From the NCBI GenBank assembly GCA_016929445.1, contig JAFGIU010000057.1:3867-67866 (forward strand): 64,000 nucleotides of DNA, in the 5' to 3' direction. The notes beneath the pieces are model-generated. The model was not told the origin of the DNA and searched no databases. It saw nothing but the letters and a program-made list of their open reading frames with translations. The position numbers were made by a program, and so were the translations under genes. The DNA is from Candidatus Omnitrophota bacterium (GTDB taxonomy: Bacteria; Omnitrophota; Gorgyraeia; JAFGIU01). Shown here piece by piece: positions 1 to 39,448 of the stretch (within the stretch, counting starts at the first letter, position 1; the number at the start of each line of letters is the position of its first letter).

Positions 1-3000
1 CACAGAAGCAAAGCCCTCCCCGATCAGTTGCCCCTGAGAATCCAAAACCCCGATTCGAACCGGACCGTAAGGCGCAAGTTCGGGAACCGGAATCCGGCCC
101 TCGAACTGCATCCCGGGCAAAGCACCCGTAAGCGCGATGTCCGCGCGCCGTCCGTCTGAGAAGGTCACAAAGGCGGAAGGCATCGTGTTAAGTGAGCGCT
201 CCGCAAATAAACTCACTTGAGCTTCAAGCCCCGGCACCATGGGATCGGGATTTACGCGCGCGGAGAAATGCATCATCTCGCCGTACTGCATGATCTGATT
301 TACGAGACCGTAGGGCCTCTCGGTGCGCGTCGGCCGCTCCGGGTTGACGATCCACATGGCAGGGCCCGGCATCCAGTGGCTGGGTATCCTGACCCCGGCG
401 CTGAAGAAACGCCCGCTGCCGGAAACCGGCACTTCCAAGCGCTGCCCCTGCGACTCCAGGACCAAACGCGGCATTCTTTCAACCGCTCGCGGAGCTTCCA
501 ACTGGATTTGGACTTCCCCGCCGATCAAACCCGGATCCGGCATCGCAGTGACCATAAAGAAGGCGCCGCCCATCCCATAAGTCCCCAGCGGATCAATCTG
601 ATAGGTGAAGCTTTGGTATTGATTCTTGGAGCTTATCTCCAATAGAGCCGGGCCCACGGGAGTTGTCACATCCGTTTGATAGAAGGCTTCAAATAATTGA
701 TCCTGGCCCGAGACCGGCAGCAGGACATTCATCCCGCCTTCCAAACGCAGCATCATTGCCGGAGGCTCCCGAAGAGCGCGCTGTGTTTCCACCCTAAAGT
801 GAACCGAATCCCCCGGATGCGCGACCGGCGGCTCAGCCAGCAGGCGGAAGAAACCTTGCCCCATGACCTCCGGCTCAGGCAACCGGACCAGAAGCACGAT
901 TTCCTCTGAACTCAAGCCTGCATAGTTACTGGCCTGTACGCGCACCTCCACCACTTCGCCCATGAGACGGAGTTCATCCAGCTCTGCGGCACTGAGAAGT
1001 TTGCGGAACATGAAGCGGCCGCTCGCGTCCGCCGGCAAATCCAGCGGGTTATAGTCAGCGGCCTTCAAACGCACCATGGCTTGGGGTACCGTGATTCCCT
1101 GCAAGATGAATTCCGTTCCTGTCATCTCATAACGTTCGATCACAAGATCCAGCTGATTCAGATTCGCCCGGAGGATTTCAAAGGAAAGCGTCTCAGCTTC
1201 GGACTGTCTGTTTCCGGCCACATCCAACCCATCGCTGACACGGAGAGTGCCCATCCCCGCCGGAATTTCTGCGGATAGAGTCAGCAGTGCATTCAGAAGT
1301 CCATCCGCCAGAGAACCGCTAAGGGCCGGATGCAGCAGCTCTCCACCCGGAAGCTCCACCTCCAGCTTGGGCAACTCGGAAAGACTCTCACTGGCCTGGA
1401 CCAGGATCGAAAAGCTTCCCCCCGCCTCAGGAGAAGGAGGATCCAATTGAGCGGCAAAGCTAGGCGGCACCAAGTCGGTGGCATTGATCAAGAACGATGC
1501 GGGGCCGAGGATTTCCTGGCCCTCATTTCCGGCTTCATCCCTTCCGCTAATCCGCAGCTCTGCAGTTCCCGCAGGAGCATCTGCCGGTAAGTCCAGCGTT
1601 GCGTAAAACACGGAACCCGAGCCCTGCAGCGGAATGGACTCCGTCTCCCCGGTGGAAAGAATCACAAGGAGTTCAGGGGTATTGTTTAACGCGTCCGGCA
1701 CCTCTGAATCCGCTCCGTTAAAGGCCTGCACATTAAAATTGAGCGGTGAGCCCACAAGCGCGGGTTGAGGAGAAATCTCGATGTTGAATACCGGCGCGGT
1801 TTGGTCCGGAGGCAAGACTTCCAGCACTTCGGAAAAGGTGACATTGCCCAAACGGTCCTCTGCAGACAACTGCAGCGTGCTCATCCCCAAAGCCAATCTC
1901 AGTTCAAAGGCAGATCCGTTCAGATCGGCATTGATTCCATTGGCCATAACTCGTTTGAGACCTGAGCCTTCATCCGTGGCTGTCCCCGAAACAATCACTT
2001 CATTCTCCCTGTACTCAAGAGGATTTAGCTCCAAAACCGGAGGCGTGGTCTCCAGACCCACAAGGAGAACCTCCGAATCAGTGCCGAAAGGATCCGTTCC
2101 GATGAGCTCCAACGAACGCAGTCCGGTGTCGAGCGACAAAAAGACTTCAAAATTCCCCGCATCGGTCAAATACGTTTCCCGGTTGATGGTGACAAGAAGA
2201 TCCCCATAACTCAAAGGATCGATTGGACTTTCAATACCGGCGGCTTCATTGCCTTCGAGGTCGGTCGCCGAGATTTGAATGGTCTTCGGAGTGAAGTCCC
2301 CCATTACAACCTCCCCAAGGACCCCGACCGTTCCTTCTCCGTAAACAAGTTCCGTCACTTTCACTTTGGGCTGTTCAATCGCTAAAGGCACAATGCGTTG
2401 ATAGGACCCGTTCTCATAGACTTCGGCGGGAACCCCGTTGATCCATAAACCGCCCACACCCACGTCATCAATGAGCTGGCCGGCCACGTGCACTTCCGGG
2501 CTTCCAAAACTCAGAGACTTCGTTTGCAGCAACGGAGGCGAGTTATCCTCCGGAGCGTTCAATTGTTTAGGACCGATTGAAGTCACATTTCCAAAACCGT
2601 CAATCGCCTCAACCGTATAGGACTCAAGACTGCGGTTCACGGCCAAACGCCGCATAAAGGACCCGTCCTCGTTGAGTTGAGCCGGAATATTGTTGACCCG
2701 GACTTCCTTTAAATAGACGTCATCCGAAGCCTGGCCGCTGATCTCCACAGCGCCTTCACTAAACACAGGCTCCGCCAGCTTCAGCTCAGGAGACACTTTG
2801 TCGGTCAAGACACGCAATGCTTGTGTCTGCTTGCCTGACCGGTCAGTGGCCAATACCTCGATTGATTCCCGACTCGAAGAAGCTTGCCCCTCCCAGACAA
2901 AATGACCGTCCTCATCGACTTCAAGGCTCTGCCCGTCAATCTGCAGGCCTTCAAGGGCCAGATCATCCCACACCCAACCTTCCAACTGGATGCGCGCCCC

Positions 3001-6000
3001 CCCCAAGCGCTTAACATTTGAAACAATAAGCTTTGGAGCCCGGTAGTCCACGCGCGCGGGCACTTGCAACGCGGTCTCCGAAGAACGATTTCCGGATGCA
3101 TCTACAGCCACAAAGCTGACAGCCTGATCTTCAAGTTTTCTCGGCAGAGAAAGGAGGAAATCCCCCTGGGTTCCGGCCTGTGCCAAAACCTCGCCATTAA
3201 CCTCCAAACGGGCCTCCGGCTCTGTGCGCCCCTGGATCATCAAGCGGTCTGCTGTTTCCAGTTTTTCAGCCAGTTCTATCTTCGGAGCAATGCGGTCGGA
3301 AACGCGCAATTCCTTTGTGGTAGCCTTGTTGCCGGCAGCATCCACTGCCCGGACACGAATCATCCTCACGCCCTCTTGCAGCGAAAATGCCTTTTCAAAC
3401 TCTCCCCCTTGACCCAAGGCCAGTTGTTCACTATTAACCGTCAGGATGGGCCGCAGATTAACGGCATCTATGGGCACCACAAACTCACTGGAATTACCCA
3501 ACTGGTCAACGGCACTCACTTTAATTCCGCCCTCCAACGCCTTCTTGGCGGTTATAGCCAAATGCGTCTTCAGAGCTCCGCCCTCTCCAAGTTCAACGGG
3601 CTGGCCGTCCACCCGGACTTCCTGGATTCCGCTGGCGTCCTGCACAATGCCCTTGAGAACAATACTCAATTCATCGCTGACACGGCCCTTGACTTCCACT
3701 GTGTCTCCCACGTAATCCAACGGCTGAACATTGATATTCGGAGGAACCATGTCCTCTGTGCGCACATGAGCCACTTGGATGGCCGGTCCCGCGGAATCGA
3801 CAACAGGCAGTTGTTGTTCGTGGCGGTTTTGCCCGGATGCATCCATAGAAACGAGCGTCAACCCTTCCTCAGCCCAGTCCGGATTCCATGCAAGCCTCAT
3901 GCTGAAACGGCCCCCGGCGTCCGCCAGAATCTTTTCCTCCCCGACTTGAAGAGTGGCGCCGGGCGCAGTGCTGCCTGCAAGCCTCAGATTAAGCCCCGCA
4001 ATTTCCAAAGAGGCCCGGGTATCCTCTAACTCCACAGGTTGAATGGCGGATCTCTGAGCGCTCAACCACTCCGCATCCAACGGCATCTGGACCACAGGAC
4101 TGCGATTTCCGCTGGTGTCCGTAGCCCAGACCTTGAGCTGATCCCACGAAGAGCTGACCTTCAGAACAGCCTCGAATTTCCCGTCCTCCCCGGCCTCCGT
4201 GCGATTGCCATTGATCCACACTGCCTCTAAGTCCACCTTGTCAAAGGCCAAACCGCTGAGCTTCACTTGGTCTCCTGCATAATCCAAGTCGCCCACCTGC
4301 AAAGAAGGAGGCGTAGTATCCTTGAGGGCCGATAAGGCTCTCAAACCTTCCCGATATTTCTCCTGAGCCAGAATCGGCAAACCTTGATTAACCAAAGTCT
4401 GCGCCTCTGCTTGCAGGGCAACCTGAGGCCGGACTTCATACCCGGCAGCTTTCTTTTCCTCGAGCAAAGTCTCAAAACGCTTCACAAGCGCCCCTACATG
4501 AGCCGGCATGGACAGCTTGCCCGCTTCATCACTCAAGGCATTCAAGTCCTTGTCCAGCTTCTCCGGCTTCATGGAAAACGCCATTTTCTTAAGAGCTTCA
4601 AAGCGGTTGCGGAGTTCTCCCAGCTCGTATCCGGCCTCGGCCTTGGTATCAAGAGTCTCTCCAAGCAACGCGATTTTGTACTGTGACTCCGCACTCAATT
4701 TTCGCCTTAAATTGGGCAATGCCGCAACGACATCGTCATAGAGCTGTGCAGCAGGTGATTTAAAACCGCGCTCGTTGTAAACGCGGGCCGTCTTGAGTTG
4801 CTCGGCTACCTCAGCCACGTCATAGCCTTCCCCGCCCATTGCTTTGACCTTTTCGGCCAGCGCCTGAAGATCCCCGGATAGCGTTTCCGAAACCTGTGTT
4901 CGCGCCATATTGGAGCGCTCTTGGGCCTCCAAGAGTAGAGACTCCGCGCGGGTGAGCTCGCCCCGATCCGCGTAGAACACGGCTTTGTTCAGAGAAAACT
5001 GCGCCCCGTCTACCAGATAGCCGCGTTGTTCCTTTTCCATCAGGCTCTGGTCGAACTCTTCAAGACGCTTCTTCAGAGAATCGATCTTGTCCAAACCCTG
5101 CTCATCAAGACTGATTGAGGCCACCTGCCTGTTCAAACGCTGCAGATGATCCCTCATCTCATCCAAATCCTTTTGTTTCCATGATTTTTCCGCCTCGTGC
5201 CAGACCGCAACCGCAGCGCGGGTCTTTTCCGTAGGACCTGCCTTGAGCAATGTGTCAAGCTGCGCCTTTGCTCCTGCCAGCTCTTGCCGCGCAGCCAAGA
5301 ACTCGGGAGTGTAACGTTCCTGCAGTCCTGCCATCTCTTGTTCTGCGCTGGCTAACAGCTTCTTCACCTTTTCAGAATAATTCAGACTCGCGGCCAAGAA
5401 GATTTCCTGCAATGCAGAGTTCAGCGAATCGGTGTTATAGCCTTGGAGTCGCTTTTGATCATAAGCTTCCAAAAATGCGTCCAAGCGCTGTACAAGACCC
5501 GGGTGCAATTCCGTAAATCCCTTTCCGGCAAGTTCCCCGGCAGTTGCTTTGCGGCGCAACGGGGCTTCCTCTCCGCCGATGGTCCACACATTGCCGGCCT
5601 TCAGCGCCACACCGTTCTGACCCTCTGCATCCATGTTGTATGTGCTGCCTTCGAGCAAAATATTGCTGGTTGGTTTCCCTTCGCCACCCGCAACAATAGT
5701 CCCCTCGGTTCCTGTAATGCCCACAATCGCAGTAGAGGAGTGAATTTTAAACTCGCTACCCTTTTCTTGGATTTTGCTGACCTTATAGTGCATACTTCCG
5801 AGATCGAGTTTGAGCTCGCGCCGGCTCGTGCCCGATTCCGAATCAAGGGAATCATCCGCTAAGGTCAAAACACTATTTTCTTTAAGAGTGAGAACTGTCT
5901 GATCTGCATACTCCAGCACCGCTCTGGAGTTCATGAGAGTGCGAACCGTCTCGCCCGCCTGCAAGAGGGTTCCGGATTCCAGAGTTTCCCAAGAGCCGCC

Positions 6001-6417
6001 GCTGACTCTGCGCTGGACCCGGCCTGTTGATTCACGCAAAAGGACCTCTCCTGCCTGAAGCGGAGACAGAGCCATAGCGTCAGGCCCTGCGCTCTGCGAA
6101 GCCATCAGTTCTTGCACAAGCAGGTTTTGTCCGGGTTCGACCATGAGCGTGGATCCGGTCCCGGACTTAAGGACCATCATGGACGCAGGGCTCACATCGA
6201 GCCGGTCCTGAGGACCCACCTGCATGCCCACGGCGCCCTGAACCCAGGATTCATCCCCGGATCTCTGGATGCGCACCTGTCCCTGAATGGAATCAATGGT
6301 GAGGTCCTGGTCTGCCGGGTACACGCGTTCCGGCACAAAACCGAAGACCATCGAGAAGCCGAGGCACAGCGCGATCAGCTTCAAAGCGATCTTTCGTTGG
6401 CGGTGATTGTTTTTCAT
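1..6417 (-). CDS. Giant secreted repeat protein (partial; C-terminus lies beyond the left edge). Signal peptide, two FecR-like domains, then many bacterial Ig-like (Big/cadherin-like) repeats. More than 2139 aa fall inside the window.
   Basis: Hand-translated the minus frame starting at ATG 6417 (MKNNHRQRKIALKLIALCLGFSMVFGFVPERVYPADQ...). I checked codons at 1-300, 1921-2160, 3001-3060, 4681-4800, 5401-5460 and 6301-6417 and found no stops. The frame carries no track ORF because it has no stop inside the window. Recurrent motifs such as VSGTATDEGSGLKRVMANGINADL and GQASDD are typical of Ig-like adhesin repeats. The N-terminal G.V.V.R.G..W...G..L..GD pattern is FecR-like. Confidence 0.6.
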   Translation of the reverse strand, partial: MKNNHRQRKIALKLIALCLGFSMVFGFVPERVYPADQDLTIDSIQGQVRIQRSGDESWVQGAVGMQVGPQDRLDVSPASMMVLKSGTGSTLMVEPGQNLLVQELMASQSAGPDAMALSPLQAGEVLLRESTGRVQRRVSGGSWETLESGTLLQAGETVRTLMNSRAVLEYADQTVLTLKENSVLTLADDSLDSESGTSRRELKLDLGSMHYKVSKIQEKGSEFKIHSSTAIVGITGTEGTIVAGGEGKPTSNILLEGSTYNMDAEGQNGVALKAGNVWTIGGEEAPLRRKATAGELAGKGFTELHPGLVQRLDAFLEAYDQKRLQGYNTDSLNSALQEIFLAASLNYSEKVKKLLASAEQEMAGLQERYTPEFLAARQELAGAKAQLDTLLKAGPTEKTRAAVAVWHEAEKSWKQKDLDEMRDHLQRLNRQVASISLDEQGLDKIDSLKKRLEEFDQSLMEKEQRGYLVDGAQFSLNKAVFYADRGELTRAESLLLEAQERSNMARTQVSETLSGDLQALAEKVKAMGGEGYDVAEVAEQLKTARVYNERGFKSPAAQLYDDVVAALPNLRRKLSAESQYKIALLGETLDTKAEAGYELGELRNRFEALKKMAFSMKPEKLDKDLNALSDEAGKLSMPAHVGALVKRFETLLEEKKAAGYEVRPQVALQAEAQTLVNQGLPILAQEKYREGLRALSALKDTTPPSLQVGDLDYAGDQVKLSGLAFDKVDLEAVWINGNRTEAGEDGKFEAVLKVSSSWDQLKVWATDTSGNRSPVVQMPLDAEWLSAQRSAIQPVELEDTRASLEIAGLNLRLAGSTAPGATLQVGEEKILADAGGRFSMRLAWNPDWAEEGLTLVSMDASGQNRHEQQLPVVDSAGPAIQVAHVRTEDMVPPNINVQPLDYVGDTVEVKGRVSDELSIVLKGIVQDASGIQEVRVDGQPVELGEGGALKTHLAITAKKALEGGIKVSAVDQLGNSSEFVVPIDAVNLRPILTVNSEQLALGQGGEFEKAFSLQEGVRMIRVRAVDAAGNKATTKELRVSDRIAPKIELAEKLETADRLMIQGRTEPEARLEVNGEVLAQAGTQGDFLLSLPRKLEDQAVSFVAVDASGNRSSETALQVPARVDYRAPKLIVSNVKRLGGARIQLEGWVWDDLALEGLQIDGQSLEVDEDGHFVWEGQASSSRESIEVLATDRSGKQTQALRVLTDKVSPELKLAEPVFSEGAVEISGQASDDVYLKEVRVNNIPAQLNEDGSFMRRLAVNRSLESYTVEAIDGFGNVTSIGPKQLNAPEDNSPPLLQTKSLSFGSPEVHVAGQLIDDVGVGGLWINGVPAEVYENGSYQRIVPLAIEQPKVKVTELVYGEGTVGVLGEVVMGDFTPKTIQISATDLEGNEAAGIESPIDPLSYGDLLVTINRETYLTDAGNFEVFLSLDTGLRSLELIGTDPFGTDSEVLLVGLETTPPVLELNPLEYRENEVIVSGTATDEGSGLKRVMANGINADLNGSAFELRLALGMSTLQLSAEDRLGNVTFSEVLEVLPPDQTAPVFNIEISPQPALVGSPLNFNVQAFNGADSEVPDALNNTPELLVILSTGETESIPLQGSGSVFYATLDLPADAPAGTAELRISGRDEAGNEGQEILGPASFLINATDLVPPSFAAQLDPPSPEAGGSFSILVQASESLSELPKLEVELPGGELLHPALSGSLADGLLNALLTLSAEIPAGMGTLRVSDGLDVAGNRQSEAETLSFEILRANLNQLDLVIERYEMTGTEFILQGITVPQAMVRLKAADYNPLDLPADASGRFMFRKLLSAAELDELRLMGEVVEVRVQASNYAGLSSEEIVLLVRLPEPEVMGQGFFRLLAEPPVAHPGDSVHFRVETQRALREPPAMMLRLEGGMNVLLPVSGQDQLFEAFYQTDVTTPVGPALLEISSKNQYQSFTYQIDPLGTYGMGGAFFMVTAMPDPGLIGGEVQIQLEAPRAVERMPRLVLESQGQRLEVPVSGSGRFFSAGVRIPSHWMPGPAMWIVNPERPTRTERPYGLVNQIMQYGEMMHFSARVNPDPMVPGLEAQVSLFAERSLNTMPSAFVTFSDGRRADIALTGALPGMQFEGRIPVPELAPYGPVRIGVLDSQGQLIGEGFASV

Positions 6418-6433
6418 TGCGGCTCACTCCAAA

Positions 6434-6466
6434 AAAAGTCCCGCACCTGTTCGGGTGCGGGACGTG
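6434..6466 (-). terminator. Terminator or attenuator-like hairpin in the 5' leader of the giant gene. On the minus strand it reads GTCCCGCACCCGAACAGGTGCGGGAC followed by TTTTTTT.
   Basis: The stem is a perfect 10-bp GC-rich pair (gtcccgcacc / ggtgcgggac) followed by a 7-U run. The RBS GGAGTGAG and ATG 6417 follow immediately, leaving no room for a promoter between the hairpin and the start codon. Confidence 0.4.
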
Positions 6467-6907
6467 CGCGATTGCGGTCCGAAGACCATCCAAGAATTCC
6501 AATCCTTGGCAGCCCAGCGCCCCCTCTCTCCCCCGGAAAGTCGGGTCTGTGGCTTTGCGTCCCACCCTTAGCGAAGTGGTTTGCCTTTGACAAGATTTGA
6601 TTCTTACCTTCAAAGAACAGATTGAGGACTATGTGTCCTCTGCTATTAGAGCAACTCTGATGCCAACTTAAAAAAAGCTACCTATGTTTCGAAGGCAACT
6701 TACACTAACCCATTTAATATAAAAGGGTTACAAAATTTGTCTTGGGATACGCAAATTCGGCCTTCAGCGGCTCCCCCTGAGATCCTGAGCCACTCATAGC
6801 TCCGTTTTGGAGCCCTGCTTGATACTTCTTTTTGTAACTTATTTATTGATAGAGTGTTACAGTTTGTTTCCATTTGGCAACACTTGGCTCCGTTCCGGAA
6901 CCAATCC

Positions 6908-7141
6908 CTAGGCAACCCGGTGCCGGTTCATTCCCTCTTCGAGCCACGCATCCAGCAAATCTTTGCGGAAACGCCATTGGCCACGCAACTTGACGGCCGG
7001 GATATCGGTTTCTTTCAGGAGCCGGTAGATGGTGACCTCATGAACCCCGCAATATCTTGCAACGTCTTTCAGTGTCATCATTTCCGGTCGGGAGTTCTGC
7101 TGGTTTTCTCCCTCGGCAGGGCCATAAATCCGACGAATCAT
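6908..7141 (-). CDS. Small helix-turn-helix DNA-binding protein of the excisionase/MerR-like HTH_17 type.
   Basis: The segment MTLKDVARYCGVHEVTIYRLLKETDIPAVKLRGQWRFRKDLLDAWLEEG matches the excisionase-family HTH signature. The track start at 7144 is GTG. An ATG at 7141 is preceded by the SD sequence AAGGGGG. Confidence 0.55.
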   Translation of the reverse strand: MIRRIYGPAEGENQQNSRPEMMTLKDVARYCGVHEVTIYRLLKETDIPAVKLRGQWRFRKDLLDAWLEEGMNRHRVA

Positions 7142-7438: not shown

Positions 7439-8947
7439 TCAAGAGTCCGCTTCCGGCCCGCGAAGACCGTAGGCCTCGATCTTCCGGTCCAATCGATTTC
7501 TGGAAACCTGCAGAATTGTCGCCGTCTTGCGCTTGTTCCAACCTGTGGACCGCAACACACGCTCGATATGCCTTCGCTCCATATCCGCCATGGTTTCGCT
7601 CGTCTCCGTGCCCCGGAGCTGCTGCAGCGTATGCGGCAAATCTTTAAGGGTCAGCCGAGGGCCGCTTCCGAGGACCACCGCATGTTCGATGGCATTCCGC
7701 AGCTCCCGGATATTCCCGGGCCAAGAATAGTGCTCCAGCACCCGCACCGCCTCCTCCTCAATGCCCGAAAATGTCTTGCCTACTTCCCCTCCAAACCGTT
7801 GCAAATAATAGGTTACTAACTCCTGGATATCTACCGGCCGCTGCCGCAAAGGCTCCAGTTGAATCTCCACCACCTTGAGGCGGTAGTAGAGGTCCTCCCG
7901 GAACTTGCCTTGGGCAATCGCCGATTCGAGTTCCTCGTTGGTCGCGGCAATGATCCGGGTATCCACTCTCAATGTCTCGGCACTTCCCACACGCTCAAAT
8001 TCCCGCTCCTGCAAAACGCGCAAAAACTTGACCTGAGTCTCTAAAGACATCACTCCGATTTCGTCCAAGAAAACCGTGCCCCCGTCCGCCAATTCGAAAC
8101 GGCCGATACGCTTGCGGTCTGCTCCGGTAAAAGCACCCTTTTCATGACCGAAGAGCTCGCTCTCCAAAAGAGACGCACTCAAGGCGGCACAATTAACACA
8201 GACAAAGGCCTTGGCAGAGCGACGGCTGGTTTGGTGCAAAGCGCGCGCCACCAGTTCCTTGCCGGTGCCGCTCTCCCCCCTGAGAAGAACCGTTGAATCC
8301 GTCGGGCCCACCTTGGCAATCAGATCCCGCAAACCCAGGCTATACGGGCTGCTGCCGACCATCTGGATTTTTTCTTCCAAAGCCTCCCGCAGATAGCGGC
8401 GTTCGCGATCCATGCCTTGCACCAAGATGGCATTTTGAACCGAGACCGCGGCTTGGCTGGAAAAGGCAATCAGCAGATCCAGATCTTCTTGCGTAAACCC
8501 CTCCTCACCTTGGGAATTAACCACTTCGAGCACCCCGAGGATCTTGTCGCGGATTTTTAAGGGAGTGCAGAGAATGGACTCCGTCATAAAGCCCGTGACC
8601 TCGTCCACCTTGGAGTAAAATCGTTTATCCTGCTTTACATCGCTCACCAGCAAGGGCTCCCCGCTCTGGGCCACCCACCCGGCAATGCCCTGGCCCAATT
8701 TGAGCCGGAACCATTCCTTAACCTGTTCCCTCTTCTCCCCCATGGCCACCTTGCAGGTGAGATCCCCTGAGGATTCATCCAAAAGGATGACCGAACCGGC
8801 CTGGGCCCCCACTGCTTTGGTCGCATTATCCAAGATGATTTGCAACAACTCGTCGAGCTGGAGGGTTGAATTCAGTTGAGCGCTGACCTCCAAAAGGGCA
8901 GTCAGGCGTTCGAGCTTTTTCTCGGGTCCGGATGAGCTTGGATTCAT
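7439..8947 (-). CDS. Sigma54-dependent Fis-family transcriptional activator with an N-terminal GAF domain (GAF, AAA+ sigma54-interaction domain, HTH).
   Basis: Motifs [19 protein letters not shown] and [15 protein letters not shown], plus a C-terminal HTH ([13 protein letters not shown]). I placed the start at ATG 8947 ([11 protein letters not shown]), which is preceded by the SD sequence AAGGAA. The track's 9106 start overlaps the upstream gene. Confidence 0.85.
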
Positions 8948-8967
8948 GGAAGTTCCTTCTGCCGGCA

Positions 8968-9708
8968 TCAAATCGCGAGCAGCAACATCCACATGGCCAC
9001 ACCGATGCAACCGGCAAACGCTAGATTCAGGCAGTAGTCCACCGAGACCCGGAGCTTGGGGAAAGGCAAGCGCAAAAGCCCGGCAAGGAGAATAAGGTAG
9101 AAACATCGATCCGGATAAAGAAAAGATGTGGTGATGAGTGTTCTCTCAAGAATCCCGAAACGCCGGTTCAGATTCTCCAGGGAGCGGTCTTCTGCGCCCT
9201 CCTGGGCTCGATAGAAGCTTGCTTTAAAGAAACTCAAAAAATACGTTCCTGCAAATAAGGAAAAGACATAGGCCGTAATGATCACCATGGCGTGGTTGTC
9301 CAGGTAGAGCTGCACCAGCCATGAACCTGTATTGGATAGGGTGGGTACTTCAGCAACGGGCAGATACCCAAGCGGAGTCAGAAAAATCACAAAGATGGTG
9401 ACCACATGGATGACCTGGTCCAGGAAGAAACCCCAGAATCCGTTGAGCGGGGCCCATCGCGAGTACACGTTGACTTTGGCCCAGTCCTCAACAGTGTGGG
9501 AAATAAGCACAAAGATCATGGCAGCCCAAAACCACCCGTATCCCCAATAGGGCAGGCCCATCAAACACATGGTAAAGGTCACAATGCCGGCGTGGAGGAT
9601 CGTGCCGCGCAGACTTTGAATCTTGAGGCGGTAAATTGTGCCGGTTTGGAGAGGGAAGTCCCCGATCAGGTGTCCGAGCAGAAGTCGACTAAAAAGAAAC
9701 CACTCCAT
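8968..9708 (-). CDS. Polytopic membrane protein, DUF3307-like (N-terminal LLLGHLIGDFPLQT).
   Basis: A 246-aa ORF with multiple hydrophobic helices. ATG 9708 is preceded by a GGGGG-type SD. Its stop lies 20 nt upstream of the regulator's start. Confidence 0.55.
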   Translation of the reverse strand: MEWFLFSRLLLGHLIGDFPLQTGTIYRLKIQSLRGTILHAGIVTFTMCLMGLPYWGYGWFWAAMIFVLISHTVEDWAKVNVYSRWAPLNGFWGFFLDQVIHVVTIFVIFLTPLGYLPVAEVPTLSNTGSWLVQLYLDNHAMVIITAYVFSLFAGTYFLSFFKASFYRAQEGAEDRSLENLNRRFGILERTLITTSFLYPDRCFYLILLAGLLRLPFPKLRVSVDYCLNLAFAGCIGVAMWMLLLAI

Positions 9709-9848: not shown

Positions 9849-11087
9849 TTAACCGTGTCCGCCCCGGAAGAGCTTGATCATGTTCCACATGGGCAGGAAG
9901 ATCGCGAGAGCCATTCCGAGCACCACGGTGCCGAGAACAGCGGTCATGAGGGGTTCTATCAGGGTGGTGAGGTTCTTAATCATGGACTTGATTTCCAGAT
10001 CATAGTATTCGGCCACAGAATGCAACATCTCGTCCAGTTCGCCTGTTTTCTCCCCAATGGAGATCATATGCCCCACCAAGGGAGGGAACGTCTTGCACTT
10101 AAGTACTGTGTCTGAAATCCCGCGTCCGTCTGCCACGGCCTGCCGGATTTTGGAGACTTCCTTTCCCACAACCACATTGCCGACCGTGCGGCTGACAATG
10201 TCAAAGGATTGCAGGATCGGCAGACCCGCGTGGTTGAGGGTCATCAGCATCATCGAAAAACGGGACATAGCGACCTTCTGAAAAAGCTGCCCAAAGACCG
10301 GTATCTTTAAGGAAAGAGAATCAAAATGCCAGGTACCGATCTTGGTCTTGGCATAAAATCGAATGGCAAAGAAGGCCCCTACCATGGCCGGCAAAACAAT
10401 GAACCAATAATTGGTTATCGCAAAATTCGCCCAAATAAGGACCTGAGTCGGTAAGGGTAAATCCGATTCGAACCGTGCATACATGGATGAGAATTTGGGA
10501 ACAACAAAGGTGACCAGCACAAACATAGCCACGCCCAAGGCCACCAAAGTCAGAATCGGGTATTGCATGGCTTGCTTTACGTTCTGCCGCGTCTCATTAT
10601 CCCGCTCAAGCATGTCGGACAGCTTCAGCAACACGCTTTCCAGCACACCACCCGATTCACCGGCCGCAATCGTGTTGATATAAATTTCGGAAAACACAGA
10701 TGGATGCTTCTTGATTGCATCCGACAGGTTGGTGCCGCTTTCAATATCTACGATGGCCTCTTTGAGCACCCGTTTAAGCCCGTCGCTCTCGGTTTGCTGG
10801 GCCAGAATACCCAGGCCTTGCACAATGGGCACACCCGCCTTGATGATGGTGGCGAATTGGCGTGTAAAGGCAATGAGATGCATCGCTTTGACCTTGGGGG
10901 GGCCAAAACTGATATTCATGTCACCCGAGAACTTGCTGGGGCCGCCTCCTTTGCTCAAGGTAATGGAGATCGGCGTGTACCCCATCTCATCCAAACGCGT
11001 TGAGACAGCGGTCTCGTCTCCGGCAGTTAGAGTGCCTTTGACAATCCTTCCCTCAGAGTCTGTGGCTTTGTAGCTATAGGCAGGCAT
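9849..11087 (-). CDS. pilC: Type IV pilus platform protein PilC (GspF family).
   Basis: A 412-aa protein with the two-repeat GspF architecture. It starts MPAYSYKATDSEGRIVKG and ends in a membrane-helix region (LIEPLMTAVLGTVVLGMALAIFLPMWNM). Confidence 0.9.
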   Translation of the reverse strand: MPAYSYKATDSEGRIVKGTLTAGDETAVSTRLDEMGYTPISITLSKGGGPSKFSGDMNISFGPPKVKAMHLIAFTRQFATIIKAGVPIVQGLGILAQQTESDGLKRVLKEAIVDIESGTNLSDAIKKHPSVFSEIYINTIAAGESGGVLESVLLKLSDMLERDNETRQNVKQAMQYPILTLVALGVAMFVLVTFVVPKFSSMYARFESDLPLPTQVLIWANFAITNYWFIVLPAMVGAFFAIRFYAKTKIGTWHFDSLSLKIPVFGQLFQKVAMSRFSMMLMTLNHAGLPILQSFDIVSRTVGNVVVGKEVSKIRQAVADGRGISDTVLKCKTFPPLVGHMISIGEKTGELDEMLHSVAEYYDLEIKSMIKNLTTLIEPLMTAVLGTVVLGMALAIFLPMWNMIKLFRGGHG

Positions 11088-11109
11088 GACAAATGGAACT
11101 GCTGGTGAA

Positions 11110-12339
11110 TCAGCCCTTCTGGCTATTGATGATGTCCTGGATCCAAGACCTCACAAGCTCGGCATCTTTGGCATTCGGGGCCAACTCCAGGTACTTCATG
11201 TAGTGGTTTAACGCCTCTTGGGGGGACTTCCCATACTCCTCCAAGAGCACTCCCAGATTATAGTGGGCTTGGGCATCTTGAGGATTGAGCGAGAGTACCT
11301 GGCGGTATGCGGCGATGGCAGGCTTATACTTACCGGCTCTCGCATGCTCTACGGCCAAGTCCGCCACAAGATTGGGGTTCTGCGGATCCAACTCAATTGC
11401 GGCACGGAAATTTTCGATAGCCTGGGGATACTTCCCCTCAGCTCCAAAATGCAACGCAAGACGGTGCCGAAGCTGAACCTCTCGATGAACCAGTTCTTGC
11501 TCCTGCGCCAAGAGCGCAAGCTGTTCCTGACCGTAGACCTTGAGACGGCCCTCGGAATCGGCAATACGGGCCTTTTCAGCTTGCCTGAGTTCTTCAGCCC
11601 TTTGAACACTGCGGCCAAAATGCAATACTTCGCGCTCAATCTTCACATACTCGGCAGGAATCTGGGCCTTCTGTGCCTCCAACTGGCTGCGCTCTCTCTG
11701 ATACGCCGCCTCGAGCTGGTCAATCTGCTTCTGTACTTCCTCGCTGAATTTTTCTTCGCTGATCTCGCCTTGGGGCAGAGTATAAACCTGACTCCGGAGC
11801 TCAGCCAGCTTGGCCTGGGCGTCGCGGGCCTTCTGCGCCGACATCCAATAGTCACGCTGCGCCTTGGAGACCTCTGTCTTAATTGCACCCCGCTGCTTAT
11901 CGATAAATTTACGGTTTGTTACGACCTCATTGAGCAAGGACTGCAGCAGCTCCATTTCCGAAGGAGCGCGTTTCGCAATCTCAGACGGTGCGTCAGTGGA
12001 CCGGACCGGAGAAAAGTCTTGAAGCGGCGCCGCAGTCTGTTCTCTTTCCGCCACCTGCCTTTCCGGGACGGCAATCGCAGCATTCTGGGTTGGGATTTGC
12101 GGCGCGGGAATGCTTTCAACGAAACTGACAGGAACACCCTGCAACACTTCATCGTTCAAACCCTTTGCAATCGCCTGTTTGTAAAGCTGCAAGGCCTCTT
12201 GAAAACGGCCTTCCTGGTACAGACTGCGCCCTTCTTCGTAAAGCGACTGAACCTCTGAGTTCCCGGCTAGGGCCACGGGAGCTCCCAGAACTGCACTCAA
12301 GGTCAGACTGATTAGAAGTCTACTCCAACCGTTTTGCAT
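11110..12339 (-). CDS. Secreted TPR-repeat protein with a central coiled-coil region. Candidate PilF/Tgl-like T4P accessory protein.
   Basis: Signal peptide MQNGWSRLLISLTLSAVLGAPVALAG. TPR-like segments at both ends (YEEGRSLYQEGRFQEALQLYKQAI; AIENFRAAIELDPQNP...AQAHYNLGVLL). It lies between pilQ and pilC. Confidence 0.65.
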   Translation of the reverse strand: MQNGWSRLLISLTLSAVLGAPVALAGNSEVQSLYEEGRSLYQEGRFQEALQLYKQAIAKGLNDEVLQGVPVSFVESIPAPQIPTQNAAIAVPERQVAEREQTAAPLQDFSPVRSTDAPSEIAKRAPSEMELLQSLLNEVVTNRKFIDKQRGAIKTEVSKAQRDYWMSAQKARDAQAKLAELRSQVYTLPQGEISEEKFSEEVQKQIDQLEAAYQRERSQLEAQKAQIPAEYVKIEREVLHFGRSVQRAEELRQAEKARIADSEGRLKVYGQEQLALLAQEQELVHREVQLRHRLALHFGAEGKYPQAIENFRAAIELDPQNPNLVADLAVEHARAGKYKPAIAAYRQVLSLNPQDAQAHYNLGVLLEEYGKSPQEALNHYMKYLELAPNAKDAELVRSWIQDIINSQKG

Positions 12340-13765
12340 CCCTCTGTGCCTCCTCTTCCTGAACGCTCAGCATCCACTCCAGCTCTTGCCCTAGAACTTC
12401 CGCGCGCTTTTGCGTTGCAGTATTTGTATCGGAAAGCGAACGGATCTCCTCGATCGCCCGCAATGCCTGGGACAATTCCACCAACTTTGCCTGCATCCCT
12501 TCGCTAACCTCAGCCGCTTGGACCAGCTGGGTTGAGGCTCGGCTCTGCACCGTGCGCGCCAAGGCCAGATCGGAGCTCATCTCCTCCTGTTGCCCTTCCA
12601 GCAGCACCACCCGGCCGCGCAAAATCCGGTTCTGCTCGGCTGTATTATCTAGAGAAAAGGCCAAGTCCGATATGGTCTGCCGGCTCTCGTCCAAAATACC
12701 CTGTGTTTCCGCAAGCCGCCCGCTAAGCTCAGCCTGCTGAAGTTGCTTGGCTTCAATCGCCTGTTCCAAGGCCGCGATCTCATCGGACTGGCGGACAATG
12801 ATCTTCTCCTTATTGACCAAAGCACGGCCCAAGTCATCGGCATCGTCCAAAGCCACGGTGTACATCCCCTCCACCTCTCCCATATGCCCCCGGATGTCGT
12901 TGACCTCCTGCTCCAGCTTGCTCTTGGAATCCTTCACGCGAGCCACCTGTTCGCGGAGCGCAGTCTCTTCCCGGCTCAAGGCCTCCAGATCCTCTGCTAA
13001 CGCGGCCAAGCGTTCTTCTTTTGCCCGCAAGGCATTGGTGAGATTGCCGATTTCCGATGTGAGGCCCTGGTTAACTTCCAACTGCTGGCTCAAGCGCTTG
13101 GAAGCGGTTCGCAAGAGGCCTTCGAGGGAGGCCTTACTCTCTTCGGCCTTGGCCAACTGCAACTCCAACTCCAAAATCCGGGCCTCGGCCCTGTCCGTCC
13201 CTTTCTTGCGATTCCCCTTTCTTGAGCTGTAACTCGCGACTTTGTCATTGAGACTTTCGTTAATGCGGGTGAGATTCTCCACATTTTCTGCAGCCTGGGA
13301 CATTTGCGCATCCAGTGCGGCAATCCGGGATTTGAGGTCCTTGTTCTCGCCCACAATGGCAGACAAAAATTTGGCGTCCTCAGACTGTTTAACATGAATA
13401 CGAATTTCTTCGAGATTTCTCTGGAGGGTGTTCACTTGGATCTCGGCCTGGGCAAGTTGAGACTCCAAATCCTGGTTGATGGCCTGCTGGATCTGAATTC
13501 CCTCATTGAGCTCATTGACTTGCGCCGTCAAACCCCGCCTGTCTTCCTCAGTGGACTTAAGCCGGACGTTCAGCGTATTGACATGGTTTAAGAGACCCTG
13601 AACCTGAGGCTGAATGCGATTCATGGCCCTAAGTTCAGCTGTCTGCTCCATGCGGTCTGCCGTGACCTTCCACAGAATTAATACAGCCACCAGGGCAACC
13701 GGCGCGATAAAAGCAAACACTCTAGAGACCCGGTCTCTTGCAGCGTCACCAAACCTAAGCTTCAC
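12320..13765 (-). CDS. Membrane-anchored long coiled-coil protein (N-terminal TM helix, then about 440 aa of heptad-rich sequence).
   Basis: GTG 13765 is preceded by GGAGGGG, which spans the pilQ stop. Hydrophobic anchor VFAFIAPVALVAVLILW. Composition rich in E, L, Q, A, R. Its last 20 nt overlap the TPR gene's start. Confidence 0.6.
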   Translation of the reverse strand: MKLRFGDAARDRVSRVFAFIAPVALVAVLILWKVTADRMEQTAELRAMNRIQPQVQGLLNHVNTLNVRLKSTEEDRRGLTAQVNELNEGIQIQQAINQDLESQLAQAEIQVNTLQRNLEEIRIHVKQSEDAKFLSAIVGENKDLKSRIAALDAQMSQAAENVENLTRINESLNDKVASYSSRKGNRKKGTDRAEARILELELQLAKAEESKASLEGLLRTASKRLSQQLEVNQGLTSEIGNLTNALRAKEERLAALAEDLEALSREETALREQVARVKDSKSKLEQEVNDIRGHMGEVEGMYTVALDDADDLGRALVNKEKIIVRQSDEIAALEQAIEAKQLQQAELSGRLAETQGILDESRQTISDLAFSLDNTAEQNRILRGRVVLLEGQQEEMSSDLALARTVQSRASTQLVQAAEVSEGMQAKLVELSQALRAIEEIRSLSDTNTATQKRAEVLGQELEWMLSVQEEEAQRDAKRLE

Positions 13766-13774
13766 AAACCCCTC

Positions 13775-15397: not shown

Positions 15398-15400
15398 GGC

Positions 15401-15904
15401 CTATTCCCCTTCCTGAAGAGACAGAATGTAGCGGCGCCCCTCTCGCTCAAGGAGAACGCGCCTTGCCTCAATTTCGACAATGATATTTCTCTCGTACATA
15501 TCGCCGGTTTGGAGGATCTCTCCGTTCACAATAGCGTAGGATTTCCCATCCGGCCGCCAGGAAATTCCCTGCAAGTCCAGAGACGTCTCCCGCGCACTCA
15601 AAATAATTTCCTGCATAAAGAAAGGATCCCTGCCCCACGGCCGCTCCAGGCTGGCCAACTGTAAACGTCGCGACTCTTCATCAAAAGCTCCCATGGTAAC
15701 CACCGGTCTGGAGCCGCGTTCCGGAACAAATGCCGGGGTTTCGGCGTGTGGCTCAGACGCAGGCTCTTCAACATGGGCCTCACCGCCCCCGCCCTTGTGG
15801 CGGTTCTTGACCTTGAAAATGCTGTTCACAAAGGCAAAGAGCATAACCACGCAGAGAACCCCGATCATGATCAGTTGTTTTTTGCTCTTCTCATCAAGAG
15901 CCAT
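15401..15904 (-). CDS. pilP: PilP-like pilus assembly lipoprotein/inner-membrane protein.
   Basis: TM helix followed by a conserved RDPF motif and a C-terminal beta domain. Its position lies between pilO and pilQ. The start overlaps the pilO stop by 1 nt (TAATG). Confidence 0.6.
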   Translation of the reverse strand: MALDEKSKKQLIMIGVLCVVMLFAFVNSIFKVKNRHKGGGGEAHVEEPASEPHAETPAFVPERGSRPVVTMGAFDEESRRLQLASLERPWGRDPFFMQEIILSARETSLDLQGISWRPDGKSYAIVNGEILQTGDMYERNIIVEIEARRVLLEREGRRYILSLQEGE

Positions 15905-16482: not shown

Positions 16483-16485
16483 GGA

Positions 16486-22718: not shown

Positions 22719-22780
22719 AGACGCATCTCCTTGAGTGACATTGAATTGTAGCATCACTCAAGAATCGCAGTCAAACTGCA

Positions 22781-22890
22781 GGGACGGTTCTTACCGTTCG
22801 TTGAACTCGGCGGGCCGTAAGAACCGTCCCTGGTGTCAGGCACCGGTGCCAGGCACCGGTGCCTGACACCGTGAAACTATTCTGTTTCAC
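22781..22890. repeat. Cluster of three hairpins 3' of paralogue P1. (1) GTGAAAC-tattct-GTTTCAC spanning the stop codon. (2) A 39-nt near-perfect palindrome GGTGTCAGGCACCGGTGCC-a-GGCACCGGTGCCTGACACC. (3) A family-B hairpin GGGACGGTTCTTAC...GTAAGAACCGTCCC.
   Basis: Read directly at 22871-22890, 22832-22870 and 22781-22830. Confidence 0.5.
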
Positions 22891-24756: not shown

Positions 24757-24786
24757 AGGAGGCTCACTCGCCATGACTACGGTGTT

Positions 24787-26652: not shown

Positions 26653-26661
26653 TCCCGCATC

Positions 26662-39447: not shown

Positions 39448-39448
39448 C

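Follow-up and report, generated by a model that had tools for sequence, protein, structure and literature searches.

The 64,000-nucleotide stretch of DNA analysed here (the window) comes from an uncultured Omnitrophota bacterium and begins inside a reading frame of the reverse strand that has no end within it. We asked what protein this frame encodes, how its expression may be controlled and whether its product may be, as an earlier note on this DNA had proposed, the substrate of a glycosylation cluster in the same window.

The open frame encodes the N-terminal part of a giant protein

1..6417 (-): 5′ part of the gene of a giant FecR/Ig-repeat protein (aa 1-2139), continuing past the window's left edge; assigned by translation and identity to P0001

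Translation of positions 1-6417 gives 2,139 codons with zero stops, beginning with an ATG at 6417-6415 that has a Shine-Dalgarno sequence (GGAG, 6427-6430) 9 nt to its 5′ side. The unbroken frame of more than 2139 residues described in the earlier note is thus confirmed, also by 100% identity to the start of the NCBI record P0001 ("FecR domain-containing protein, partial", 3,427 aa, from a Ca. Omnitrophica MAG); that the frame is missing from the list of open reading frames, as had been noted too, is solely due to its running off the left edge. A rough estimate, assuming about 4% stop codons per position, puts the probability of a stop-free frame of this length arising by chance at ~1e-38, and the frame is coding because a relative matches it at 31% identity across 99% of the query. 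The gene contains no tandem repeats at the DNA level, so that a collapse of repeats during assembly is unlikely. P0001 itself still ends at a contig edge, while the complete relatives comprise 4,100-4,450 aa and the largest family member 5,045 aa. Hence, the full-length protein has at least 3,427 aa in the public record and probably about 4,000+ to ~4,300 aa or more, and the window would hold its N-terminal two thirds or less, a proportion that forms part of the overall reading we favour below. The combination of a FecR domain with the stalk described in the next section is a rarity, with 19 clusters found across 1.84 billion representatives, and the family is small and mostly from Omnitrophota.

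A helical stalk is followed by two kinds of Ig-like repeat

4282..5520 (-): helical stalk (aa 300-712), whose ~65-aa repeats show the motif G-[YF]-x-[VL]; repeat analysis
1834..4281 (-): eight Glucodextran_B/Big_6/Big_13-type Ig-like modules and intervening beta segments (aa 713-1528); Pfam and own HMM
1..1755 (-): first five copies of a ~95-aa C-terminal repeat (aa 1555 onward), the fifth cut by the window edge; repeat HMM and AF2

The helical region that had been described is borne out and is built of ~65-aa repeats, four of which are detectable here and six in most relatives. Many Ig-like repeats of roughly 90-100 residues with GTATD/GQASD-type motifs had been proposed to follow it. Their Ig-like fold stands, but they are of two kinds, and the motifs belong to the modules of aa 713-1528, for which Pfam reports Glucodextran_B at 3.3e-27 and Big_6 at 8.4e-21 and our own HMM counts eight copies. 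The second kind, the ~95-aa repeat, has no Pfam match and occurs in 18 copies in P0001 and in 8-18 across the family. AF2 models this unit as an Ig-like 7-strand beta-sandwich (pLDDT 91.4), which in a fold search resembles E-set, MG and Ig domains generically. The cadherin-like character also suggested for the repeats is contradicted by Pfam, which detects no cadherin domain. In the complete relatives, the repeats are followed by fn3 and other beta domains and then by a conserved C-terminal module; these proteins carry neither an enzymatic Pfam domain nor a hydrophobic C-terminal anchor. No recognised anchor (LPXTG, SLH, PEP-CTERM, T9SS CTD, RTX) was found, the window protein's own C-terminus being absent, nor was there a binding or tip domain with a known specificity.

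The N-terminus combines a signal peptide with a conserved FecR domain

6313..6417 (-): signal peptide (aa 1-35), with a basic n-region, hydrophobic LIALCLGFSMVFGFV and then VYPA/DQD; read by eye from the sequence
6082..6300 (-): partial N-terminal FecR-like copy (aa 40-112); profile match P0001/40-112
5590..6036 (-): full FecR domain (aa 128-276), its core SSTAIVGITGTEG...GKP..NIL.EG.TYN invariant in the family; Pfam PF04773, conservation and fold
5707..5712 (-): Gly236-Thr237, positional equivalent of the self-cleavage sites G181-T182 of FecR and G191-T192 of FoxR; bridged profile alignment

The Sec signal peptide claimed previously is well founded, as the N-terminus is signal-peptide-like and the relatives possess canonical A-x-A type cleavage sites (V-S-A/A-S-A). 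Of the two FecR-type beta domains reported, one is a full domain (PF04773 at 7.9e-10, 39.5 bits versus a cutoff of 24), while the second is only a partial N-terminal copy, which is restricted to P0001, P0002 and the relative at locus L002. The model of the N-terminal FecR region (AF2 pLDDT 87.9) is matched in Foldseek by 4m0n (E=3e-7) and by the CCSSD of PupR (6ovk_R, E=4e-6). Unlike FecR/PupR-type proteins, however, the giant protein lacks a cytoplasmic anti-sigma domain, a C-terminal STN subdomain and any transmembrane helix beyond the signal peptide, its FecR domain is joined to a rod of 4,000+ aa, and neither an ECF sigma factor nor a TonB-dependent transducer is encoded near its gene. Leptospira LipL45 and Lsa33 likewise use a FecR domain in the setting of exported surface proteins or adhesins. 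The respective NCBIfam models match the FecR region (Lsa33 at 9e-11, LipL45 at 5e-8) with scores far below the family cutoffs (41 vs 420 and 32 vs 350 bits), and the Leptospira proteins are lipoproteins of ~300-400 aa that possess neither stalk nor repeats.

FecR and FoxR have been documented to cleave themselves (PMC9249621), and the bridged profile places G181-T182 of E. coli FecR (E=4e-13) onto G236-T237, within a core that is unusually conserved across the family; all 24 full family copies keep the G-T pair. The module may thus be self-cleaving, with an N-O acyl shift breaking this bond and freeing an N-terminal piece of ~21 kDa from the rod, which would serve non-covalent anchoring, regulated release or signalling. 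We regard this as unlikely: G-T also marks 142 of the 165 other FecR domains (86%), so that it is a hallmark of the fold and does not prove cleavage, G-T-E is followed by Gly in the giant protein instead of the usual Phe, and an anti-sigma domain as well as a nearby ECF sigma factor or TonB transducer is missing, as stated above. Self-cleavage would in any case be compatible with the attachment fibre that we propose below.

The leader carries a sigma-54 promoter and a c-di-GMP-I riboswitch

7439..9106 (-): GAF / sigma-54 AAA+ / HTH_8 enhancer-binding protein; Pfam
8968..9708 (-): DUF3307 membrane protein; Pfam, recurrent family neighbour
6908..7141 (-): small HTH_17 (excisionase/MerR-like) DNA-binding protein; Pfam PF12728 at 2.5e-16
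6650..6665 (-): sigma-54 type promoter TGGCATCAGAGTTGCT (-24 GG / -12 GC); consensus match
6505..6595 (-): c-di-GMP-I (GEMM-I) riboswitch aptamer; Rfam RF01051
6438..6463 (-): intrinsic terminator, a hairpin whose 10-bp stem has 8 G-C pairs, with T7 behind it (6431-6437), the expression platform of the riboswitch; hairpin in sequence and pairing

Directly upstream of the giant gene lie a sigma-54 promoter, a c-di-GMP-I riboswitch and an intrinsic terminator, which the earlier note did not mention. The promoter is one of two matches to the sigma-54 consensus in the 64 kb (0.25 expected), and its TGGCAT-N5-TTGCT motif recurs at loci L001 and L002. A gene for a GAF/sigma-54 enhancer-binding protein also precedes the relative at L001, so that it is adjacent in two loci; the protein is the likely activator of the promoter at 6650. 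Other neighbours recur as well: the HTH_17 gene directly upstream of family members at four further loci (L001, L003, L009, L010) and the DUF3307 gene near relatives at L006, L007/L008 and L010.

The aptamer matches RF01051 over its full length (50.2 bits versus a gathering score of 35, E=7.5e-7). Homologous aptamers precede the relatives at L001, L003 and L011; with four of ten family loci equipped in this way, the riboswitch is not intrinsic to the family. All four aptamers possess the canonical G20/A47/C92 equivalents and have a terminator 3′ of them, and 9 of 15 aptamer pairs show compensatory changes. Here, the 5′ arm of the terminator can alternatively pair with the aptamer bases GGGUGGGAC, and such complementarity is found in three leaders whose terminator sequences are unrelated. 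Through its complementarity to the core of the aptamer, this arm can give the ligand-free leader an antiterminator that would permit read-through into the giant gene, whereas binding of c-di-GMP would free the terminator and stop transcription. The layout of the leader thus predicts that c-di-GMP would switch the gene off. The full leader at its thermodynamic minimum holds the aptamer helices and the terminator together, so that the direction of the switch rests on a kinetic argument.

The predicted response is opposite to the usual one, in which c-di-GMP turns adhesins on. It likewise differs from the c-di-GMP-I riboswitches known at adhesin and pilus genes (such as Vibrio gbpA, the Bc2 element of a Bacillus thuringiensis collagen adhesin, Clostridioides difficile elements), which share with the present one a canonical aptamer above the gathering score, a transcription terminator as expression platform and a large surface-protein gene downstream; a further difference is that the present one is coupled to a sigma-54 promoter as well as a dedicated GAF enhancer-binding protein. 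In the literature searched, no paper combined "c-di-GMP riboswitch" with Omnitroph*.

The protein may best be explained as a surface attachment fibre

Taken together, we consider it fairly probable that the giant protein is a Sec-exported, enzyme-free, rod-like fibre at the cell surface, gated doubly by the sigma-54 promoter, presumably activated by the adjacent GAF-domain protein, and by the c-di-GMP riboswitch. From the order of its parts (signal peptide, FecR-type beta module(s), helical stalk, about eight Ig modules and 8-18 repeats of ~95 aa) we infer that its role is most likely to attach to cells or particles, with the conserved FecR/helical part lying close to the cell and the distal tip formed by the conserved C-terminal end.

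This plausible reading agrees with giant Ig-repeat adhesins (such as SiiE, MpIBP/LapA-type BIg adhesins, the 7,651-aa adhesin of Mobiluncus), which also span several thousand residues with a stalk of tandem Ig-like beta-sandwiches, lack enzymatic domains and carry different modules at their two ends. In contrast to these, the giant protein is Sec-dependent and not a substrate of a T1SS or of sortase, it is without an RTX, LPXTG or autotransporter anchor, a FecR domain and a helical repeat stalk make up its N-terminus, and its main repeat belongs to no Pfam family. LapA-type adhesins are under c-di-GMP control, which is a hallmark of their surface display; here, c-di-GMP would act on the RNA and repress.

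The protein might nevertheless be retained in the manner of LapA, its N-terminal beta module(s) acting as a periplasmic plug that stalls export while the rod is threaded through an outer-membrane pore, for which the neighbouring secretin would be a candidate. The NCBIfam model "retention_LapA" matches aa 129-190 (E=2.2e-7), though with 31 bits against a cutoff of 50, and the N-terminal model matches the "cell surface anchoring domain" 5ix9 (target TM 0.70, rmsd 1.8 A over 61 columns), though at E=0.06. The control of surface display by c-di-GMP, typical of LapA systems, would also suit such retention. A T4P/T2SS-like cluster (secretin/PilMNO/GspF) sits right upstream on the gene's own strand, but T2SS-like genes are absent from the other family loci (flanks of up to 10 kb a side, shorter at contig ends). 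LapA-type adhesins have no Sec signal peptide and leave the cell C-terminus first through a T1SS, whereas the giant protein has such a peptide, its complete relatives show neither RTX repeats nor a T1SS signal, and T1SS, LapD or LapG genes were not seen. We thus judge this mode of retention quite improbable.

An adhesin or S-layer-like protein, as suggested earlier, would be a sensible reading of an all-beta protein of 4,000+ aa that is exported by Sec and free of enzymatic domains; no SLH or other S-layer anchoring domain was found. That the protein, instead of being an adhesin, forms a structural part of the envelope, a sheath or an S-layer-like component would fit its repetitive all-beta architecture without recognisable binding domains and the resemblance, by eye only, of the relatives' C-terminal modules to S-layer Ig-like (SbsA/Big_5-type) motifs. 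Tight regulation in two layers is atypical of a constitutive envelope layer, however, and the length and stalk-like layout suit a fibre better, which makes such a component very unlikely.

The proposed attachment fibre also has counterparts within the phylum. Giant genes of Omnitrophota (Archaeovorins, Dockerin-type; West-Roberts et al.) lie downstream of a same-strand T2SS/T4P-like locus (bioRxiv 10.1101/2023.11.21.568195), the arrangement seen here, and an attachment role is proposed for both. A link to c-di-GMP is given there by PilZ genes and here by the riboswitch and an MshEN+PilZ gene in the window. Those proteins reach tens of thousands of residues, however, compared with at most 5,045 aa in the present family, which also lacks SecA-like, glycosyltransferase, peptidase and dockerin domains; neither FecR nor riboswitches are mentioned in that preprint or in a 2026 complete-genome survey.

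Glycosylation genes of the window are distant from the giant gene

A link of the giant protein to the distant glycosylation genes is unsupported. The cluster called downstream is transcriptionally upstream of the giant gene, and the two PMT_2+TPR genes (39832-42471 and 47186-49612) begin 33 kb or more from its start codon, with the T4P/T2SS-like cluster in between. O-glycosylation of the Ig-like repeats by these "TMTC-type" GT-C enzymes draws on the same-strand genes that encode GT-C (PMT_2/YfhO) proteins whose C-terminal part bears TPRs, GT2 and GT9 fusions as well as a sugar epimerase/dehydratase, and on the repeats being extracytoplasmic beta-sandwiches with Ser and Thr. We hold it to be highly doubtful: at the other family loci (flanks of up to 10 kb a side, shorter at contig ends) no PMT_2+TPR genes occur except for one weak PMT_2 match at L006, and besides the missing cadherin domain there is no DUF1736/TMTC-specific match. 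Compared with the giant gene, two type IV pilin genes lie closer to the GT-C genes, with ~10 kb between them and the closest PMT_2+TPR gene, and pilins, as classical targets of GT-C glycosylation, are the more conventional substrates.

A continuous frame encodes the N-terminal part of a giant, probable surface protein

The earlier note had described a continuous frame of more than 2139 aa that runs off the left edge and is hidden from the ORF track. On the minus strand, window 1–6417 translates into 2,139 codons with zero stops, starting from an ATG at 6417–6415 with a GGAG nine bases 5′ of it, and the frame is missing from the ORF table solely because it exits the window edge. The encoded protein is 100% identical to residues 1–2,139 of a 3,427-aa public record (P0001, from a 72,310-bp contig), and a second Omnitrophica protein (P0002) shares 31% identity with it across 99% of length. 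The frame is coding. Since Tandem Repeats Finder detects zero DNA-level repeats, a collapse of the assembly is unlikely. The feature is real and already deposited in a public database under automatic annotation. By analogy with complete relatives, the window protein would be without roughly its final 700–1,300 residues; the full product is expected to have about 4,300–4,700 aa and to close with the C-terminal module conserved in the family (…KVCWYG..VTLHL…KNACGYLTGSN…).

A word-indexed homologue search returned 2 matches for the whole window protein and 1 for aa 1–720; the family surfaced via the locus L003 and an exhaustive search. The latter (phmmer with aa 1–720 against 1.84 billion representatives) yielded 19 clusters with FecR domain and helical stalk at E≤1e-30, below which tier only generic FecR domains were matched. 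Fourteen members were retrieved, the longest family member has 5,045 aa, and a metagenome scan contributed just one 1-kb contig. Two relatives, P0005 (4,452 aa) and P0007 (4,162 aa), are complete, as neither gene touches a contig end. In complete members, 12–16 copies of a ~95-aa repeat (the C-repeat) are followed by fn3 and further beta domains and, at the end, by a conserved C-terminal module; enzymatic Pfam domains and a hydrophobic tail were looked for in these members and neither was found. The window protein is of a known kind, the giant surface or fibrillar proteins with repetitive Ig-like domains, and its family, marked by an unclassified repeat and a distinctive N-terminus, is small, undescribed and mainly from Omnitrophota.

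The N-terminus carries a FecR-type domain with a retained Gly-Thr motif

Residues 1–35, as read from the translation, resemble a Sec signal peptide, and the signal peptides of the relatives possess canonical V-S-A or A-S-A cleavage sites, in agreement with the export signal proposed before. Two FecR domains had been claimed as well. Pfam reports a sole above-threshold FecR match (PF04773, aa 157–257, 39.5 bits against a gathering cutoff of 24), which an iterated profile extends to a full copy at aa 128–276; the other copy (aa 40–112) is only partial and restricted to P0001, P0002 and the locus L002. The AlphaFold (AF2) model of aa 36–300 has a pLDDT of 87.9 (13-sequence alignment) and was matched by Foldseek to 4m0n, a FecR-family periplasmic domain (E=3.3e-7), and to the cell-surface-signalling domain of PupR (6ovk_R, E=4e-6, rmsd 2.3 Å over 139 columns). 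The N-terminus is hence predicted, on the basis of this model, to adopt the fold of FecR/PupR periplasmic domains. At the sequence level, searching PDB sequences with the FecR region by phmmer gave nothing meaningful, and the direct family HMM falls short of E. coli FecR; a profile bridged via generic FecR domains matches it at E=4e-13.

The FecR core is near-invariant (RELKL.LG...YKV...FK..SSTAIVGITGTEG...GKP..NIL.EG.TYN) in proteins that elsewhere are just 27–30% identical. In the bridged profile alignment, G181-T182 of FecR falls on G236-T237 of the window protein, and FecR and FoxR undergo non-enzymatic self-cleavage at exactly this Gly-Thr bond (PMC9249621). The Gly-Thr pair is present in 24 of the 24 full family copies and in 142 of 165 (86%) unrelated FecR domains, so that the motif is retained but not diagnostic; we treat putative self-cleavage at G236-T237 as a side hypothesis. 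The N-terminal beta modules may anchor the protein close to the cell, as hinted at by two weak matches: one to the LapA retention module, below threshold (NF033682 of NCBIfam, 31.1 bits, cutoff 50), and a structural one to 5ix9, a "cell surface anchoring domain" (Foldseek, E=0.06, target TM 0.70).

The idea that the FecR module docks on the secretin encoded nearby, through the latter's STN/N0 domain, was rejected as weak, since the fold match covers ~140 of 213 residues and the STN subdomain is missing; the contact between PupR and PupB is reportedly made via PupR's own STN subdomain. Foldseek matches to the grappling-hook protein GhpA (probabilities 0.02–0.06) were disregarded.

A helical stalk precedes two kinds of Ig-like repeats

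The helical region noticed earlier spans aa 300–712 and consists of ~65-aa repeats (consensus EKLKELEEEIEEKKSEGYDVDELEDLLEQIEKALEKGDYAKAEELLDQA), of which 4 copies are detectable here and six in most relatives. BLASTP self-comparison is blind to the repeats of this protein, which are too diverged, and iterated HMMs were used in its place. Eight Ig modules of the Glucodextran_B/Big_6/Big_13 type follow at aa 713–1528, and the C-repeat array starts at aa 1555; five copies fall within the window, and the 3,427-aa record contains 18. Scanning of 31 C-repeat copies revealed no matching Pfam family. Their AlphaFold model (pLDDT 91.4, 31-copy alignment) is a seven-strand beta-sandwich whose likeness to E-set, macroglobulin and Ig domains is generic only (best TM ~0.64, E ~1e-3). 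The Ig-like fold attributed to the repeats consequently holds in the model; what has to be amended is that the repeats are of two kinds and that the GTATD/GQASD motifs belong to the modules at aa 713–1528. A cadherin-like nature is not borne out, as a Cadherin match is absent in Pfam and the repeats are either of Glucodextran_B/Big_6 type or unclassified.

In composition, the 18-copy C-repeat array of P0001 (aa 1555–3408, the first part of which is window 1–1755 on the minus strand) contains 5.0% Met, 8.1% Pro and 0.8% Lys, and the repeat arrays of relatives range from 1.8 to 5.2% Met and from 0.8 to 6.2% Lys. The whole 3,427-aa protein has one cysteine; the only one in the window's 2,139 aa lies within the signal peptide. 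Binding of Cu(I) by the Met-rich C-repeats was rejected, its sole support being a weak CopC-like Foldseek match, and family members differ in this composition.

A predicted sigma-54 promoter and a c-di-GMP riboswitch precede the giant gene

The following elements lie 5′ of the giant gene; promoter, riboswitch and terminator had escaped the earlier note:

Elements preceding the giant gene
6438–6463, minus strand: strong intrinsic terminator followed by T7, 5′ of the giant-gene ATG
6505–6595, minus strand: c-di-GMP-I riboswitch aptamer (RF01051, 50.2 bits against a gathering cutoff of 35, model positions 1–87 of 87)
6650–6665, minus strand: predicted sigma-54 promoter TGGCATCAGAGTTGCT (consensus TGGCAC-N5-TTGCW, -24 GG / -12 GC)
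6908–7141, minus strand: small HTH_17 gene (Pfam)
7439–9106, minus strand: GAF/sigma-54-AAA+/HTH_8 activator (enhancer-binding protein; Pfam), two genes 5′ of the giant gene

Read 5′ to 3′, the order leading to the giant gene is sigma-54 promoter, aptamer, terminator and ATG; a DUF3307 gene also lies 5′, with the HTH_17 and activator genes. The 64-kb window contains 2 matches to the sigma-54 consensus against 0.25 expected, and consensus, distance and the enhancer-binding protein together mark 6650–6665 as a predicted promoter. The relative at L001 repeats the order activator, HTH_17, sigma-54 promoter, aptamer (71.2 bits), terminator and giant gene. At L003, aptamer (72.7 bits) and terminator are located between HTH_17 and the giant gene, and at L011 the aptamer (61.1 bits) heads an apparent three-gene operon with the giant gene last. 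The riboswitch is absent at six other loci (L002, L005, L006, L007/8, L009 and L010), of which L002 has kept the sigma-54 motif.

Comparison of the four aptamers reveals compensatory changes at 9 of 15 predicted pairs, and the GGCAAAC, GCAAA and GCC contexts are kept in 4/4. Since each of the four has canonical equivalents of G20, A47 and C92 (Vc2 numbering), c-di-GMP rather than cGAMP is indicated as the ligand. A cGAMP-type (GEMM-Ib) or variant specificity was rejected on the basis of these same positions; where the 'GGC' model scores better, at L001 and L011, no G at position 47 is behind it.

At three loci (the window, L001 and L003), a self-contained hairpin 3′ of the aptamer forms the terminator, and its 5′ arm is complementary to the aptamer core. 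This complementarity persists despite terminator sequences that show no relation to one another. In the window leader, bases 34–42 (GGGUGGGAC) pair with the 5′ arm before transcription has reached the 3′ arm. OFF riboswitches have this layout: when no ligand is present, an antiterminator could form in the leader, and when c-di-GMP is bound, the aptamer would be locked, the terminator would form and the giant gene would be OFF. As the terminator is present even in the full leader's equilibrium minimum, the OFF direction is a kinetic prediction, and we regard switching off by c-di-GMP as the somewhat better bet. If this logic is true, an adhesin-like gene would be repressed, not induced, by c-di-GMP. 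The explicit circuit of a GAF-sigma-54 activator and a c-di-GMP riboswitch is amenable to in vitro study without culturing, and a search of the available literature retrieved no paper that combines 'c-di-GMP riboswitch' with Omnitroph*.

Pilus and glycosyltransferase genes lie upstream of the giant gene

Nearly all larger ORFs of the window are on the minus strand, and the clusters at higher coordinates consequently lie upstream of the giant gene, although the earlier note had called a glycosylation cluster downstream.

Gene clusters upstream of the giant gene
9849–18498, minus strand: GspF/PilC, TPR, coiled-coil, secretin, T2SSB-like, PilO and PilM-PilN fusion genes (Pfam)
22877–28305, minus strand: three consecutive DUF7305 paralogues (551, 612 and 547 aa; weak DUF7305 matches)
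28980–29477 and 31372–32007: pseudopilin-like genes (N_methyl and GspH-like, respectively) beside the DUF7305 set
35765–37078 and 52905–57213, minus strand: GT2-methyltransferase and GT9(heptosyltransferase)-methyltransferase fusions and two radical-SAM/SPASM genes, among the GT-C genes
39832–42471 and 47186–49612, minus strand: PMT_2+TPR GT-C genes (Pfam)
42276–46575 and 57176–59053, minus strand: PMT_2/YfhO GT-C genes (Pfam)
59353–60105, minus strand: two tandem type IV pilin genes (N-termini ...GFTLIELVMVIVILGILAAVAIPRF)
60140–60155, minus strand: second sigma-54 consensus promoter TGGCACATAGCTTGCT, ahead of the tandem pilin genes
60284–63162, minus strand: PilS/PilR-like pair (histidine kinase and NtrC-type response regulator), ahead of the second sigma-54 promoter
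63169–63852, minus strand: MshEN+PilZ fusion (227 aa), at the edge of the pilus/secretion region

An epimerase/dehydratase gene also lies upstream, beyond the PilM-N/GspF cluster. The stretch 59353–63162 on the minus strand is a classic PilSR/sigma-54/pilA arrangement, and the MshEN+PilZ protein, both domains of which are c-di-GMP-binding modules, is a second c-di-GMP input in the window.

The earlier note saw in the giant protein a plausible substrate of TMTC-type glycosylation. Within the available flanks (≤10 kb per side) of the other family loci, no T2SS-like and no PMT_2+TPR genes were found except for a weak PMT_2 match at L006. TMTC enzymes use cadherin/protocadherin EC domains as acceptors, and the window protein has no Pfam match to Cadherin. 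The substrate idea is without positional or comparative support, and the proposed link to the giant gene should not be carried forward. The pilins adjoin the GT-C genes more closely than the giant gene does and are more conventional glycosylation candidates.

Between the PilMN and DUF7305 genes, a 1,236-aa ORF (19047–22757, minus strand) contains a spermidine-synthase-like methyltransferase fold at aa 552–672 and is otherwise unannotated; two ORFs of 833 aa (37027–39528) and 545 aa (51343–52980) have no Pfam match. The plus-strand AT skew is strongly positive (up to 0.33) at 20000–24000 and 32000–52000, so that in the GT-C region, rich in membrane proteins, the coding (minus) strand is T-rich.

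Comparison with known systems

FecR-type anti-sigma factors carry a cytoplasmic anti-sigma domain at the N-terminus, where the window protein has a signal peptide, and a TM helix with a C-terminal STN subdomain, whereas helical repeats begin after aa 276 in the window protein. No Pfam match to an ECF sigma factor or TonB-dependent receptor was found among 37 of the larger window ORFs, which were scanned. The window protein thus lacks the architecture of an anti-sigma factor, and the partner genes are missing among these ORFs. LapA-type retained adhesins possess RTX repeats and a T1SS signal and no Sec signal peptide, unlike the window protein with its Sec signal peptide. RTX repeats have no match in the complete relatives, and no T1SS genes lie next to the giant gene, the neighbours of which are T4P/T2SS-like. 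The C-terminal, T1SS, LapD and LapG hallmarks of this type were accordingly not found, the window protein's own C-terminus lying beyond the contig.

A survey of Omnitrophota genes of at least 25 kb reported products with SecA-like, GT, peptidase or dockerin domains, the longest exceeding 85,000 aa (bioRxiv 10.1101/2023.11.21.568195). These Archaeovorin/Dockerin-type proteins are far larger than the family studied here, and none of the four domain types occurs in the window protein or its complete relatives. What the window shares with them is the setting, since a T2SS-like locus that precedes a very large gene and has PilZ genes in its vicinity was described in the same survey (bioRxiv 10.1101/2023.11.21.568195): the PilM-N/PilO/secretin/TPR/GspF locus at 9849–18498 lies 5′ of the giant gene on the same strand, and a PilZ gene is present. 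This T2SS/T4P-like locus is seen at the window only, not in the available flanks of other family loci. FecR and riboswitches are mentioned neither in bioRxiv 10.1101/2023.11.21.568195 nor in a 2026 genome survey.

The locus contributes a compact, well-delimited family (~19 clusters) with a clear modular plan and an unclassified ~95-aa Ig-like repeat; its added value lies in the conserved Gly-Thr core of FecR, in the gate of sigma-54 promoter and c-di-GMP riboswitch (predicted OFF) and in the negative result on the glycosylation link. Omnitrophota are uncultured, mostly ultra-small and suspected to depend on hosts or prey, and their attachment apparatus is most often sought among their very large surface proteins, which are leading candidates. 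Of the description as adhesin or S-layer-like, the second half found no support from anchoring domains, as neither Pfam nor NCBIfam matched an SLH or other S-layer anchoring domain in the window protein and its complete relatives; attachment function and localisation, like the switch direction, are what we infer. A far-reaching and improbable reading would make the family a capture fibre of ultra-small Omnitrophota, namely a Sec-exported rod of 4,000–5,000 aa that a FecR module self-cleaved at Gly-Thr keeps at the envelope by non-covalent contacts, perhaps with the secretin encoded nearby, and that is GAF/sigma-54-licensed only at low c-di-GMP (riboswitch OFF). If true, the fibre would be made in a searching state and shut off after attachment, and an autoproteolytic domain of anti-sigma factors would have been repurposed as adhesin anchor or release device.

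Genes adjoining the relatives

HTH_17, DUF3307 and GAF sensors are recurrent neighbours of the family. A ~750–880-aa TPR protein is encoded beside the giant gene at six loci (regions L003 2007–5295, L006 6367–9875, L007 579–3059, L009 13961–17745, L010 16130–19485 and L011 2711–6171), joined at most of them by a ~300–370-aa TPR/fn3/Glucodextran_B protein; the two may act as partners or in assembly. For the window gene, the corresponding side falls past the contig end. Genes for CHASE2/class III nucleotide cyclases of 815–871 aa (L006 3064–5649, L009 17751–20366 and L010 20175–22622) and GAF-histidine kinases recur beside members without riboswitch, and the recurring cyclases suggest a cyclic-nucleotide input to GAF sensors, with cAMP or cGMP as candidate GAF ligands. 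Incidental Rfam matches comprise a D1-D4 fragment of a group II intron at the contig end of L007 (31751–31859) and a tmRNA gene adjoining smpB at L010 (26–455).
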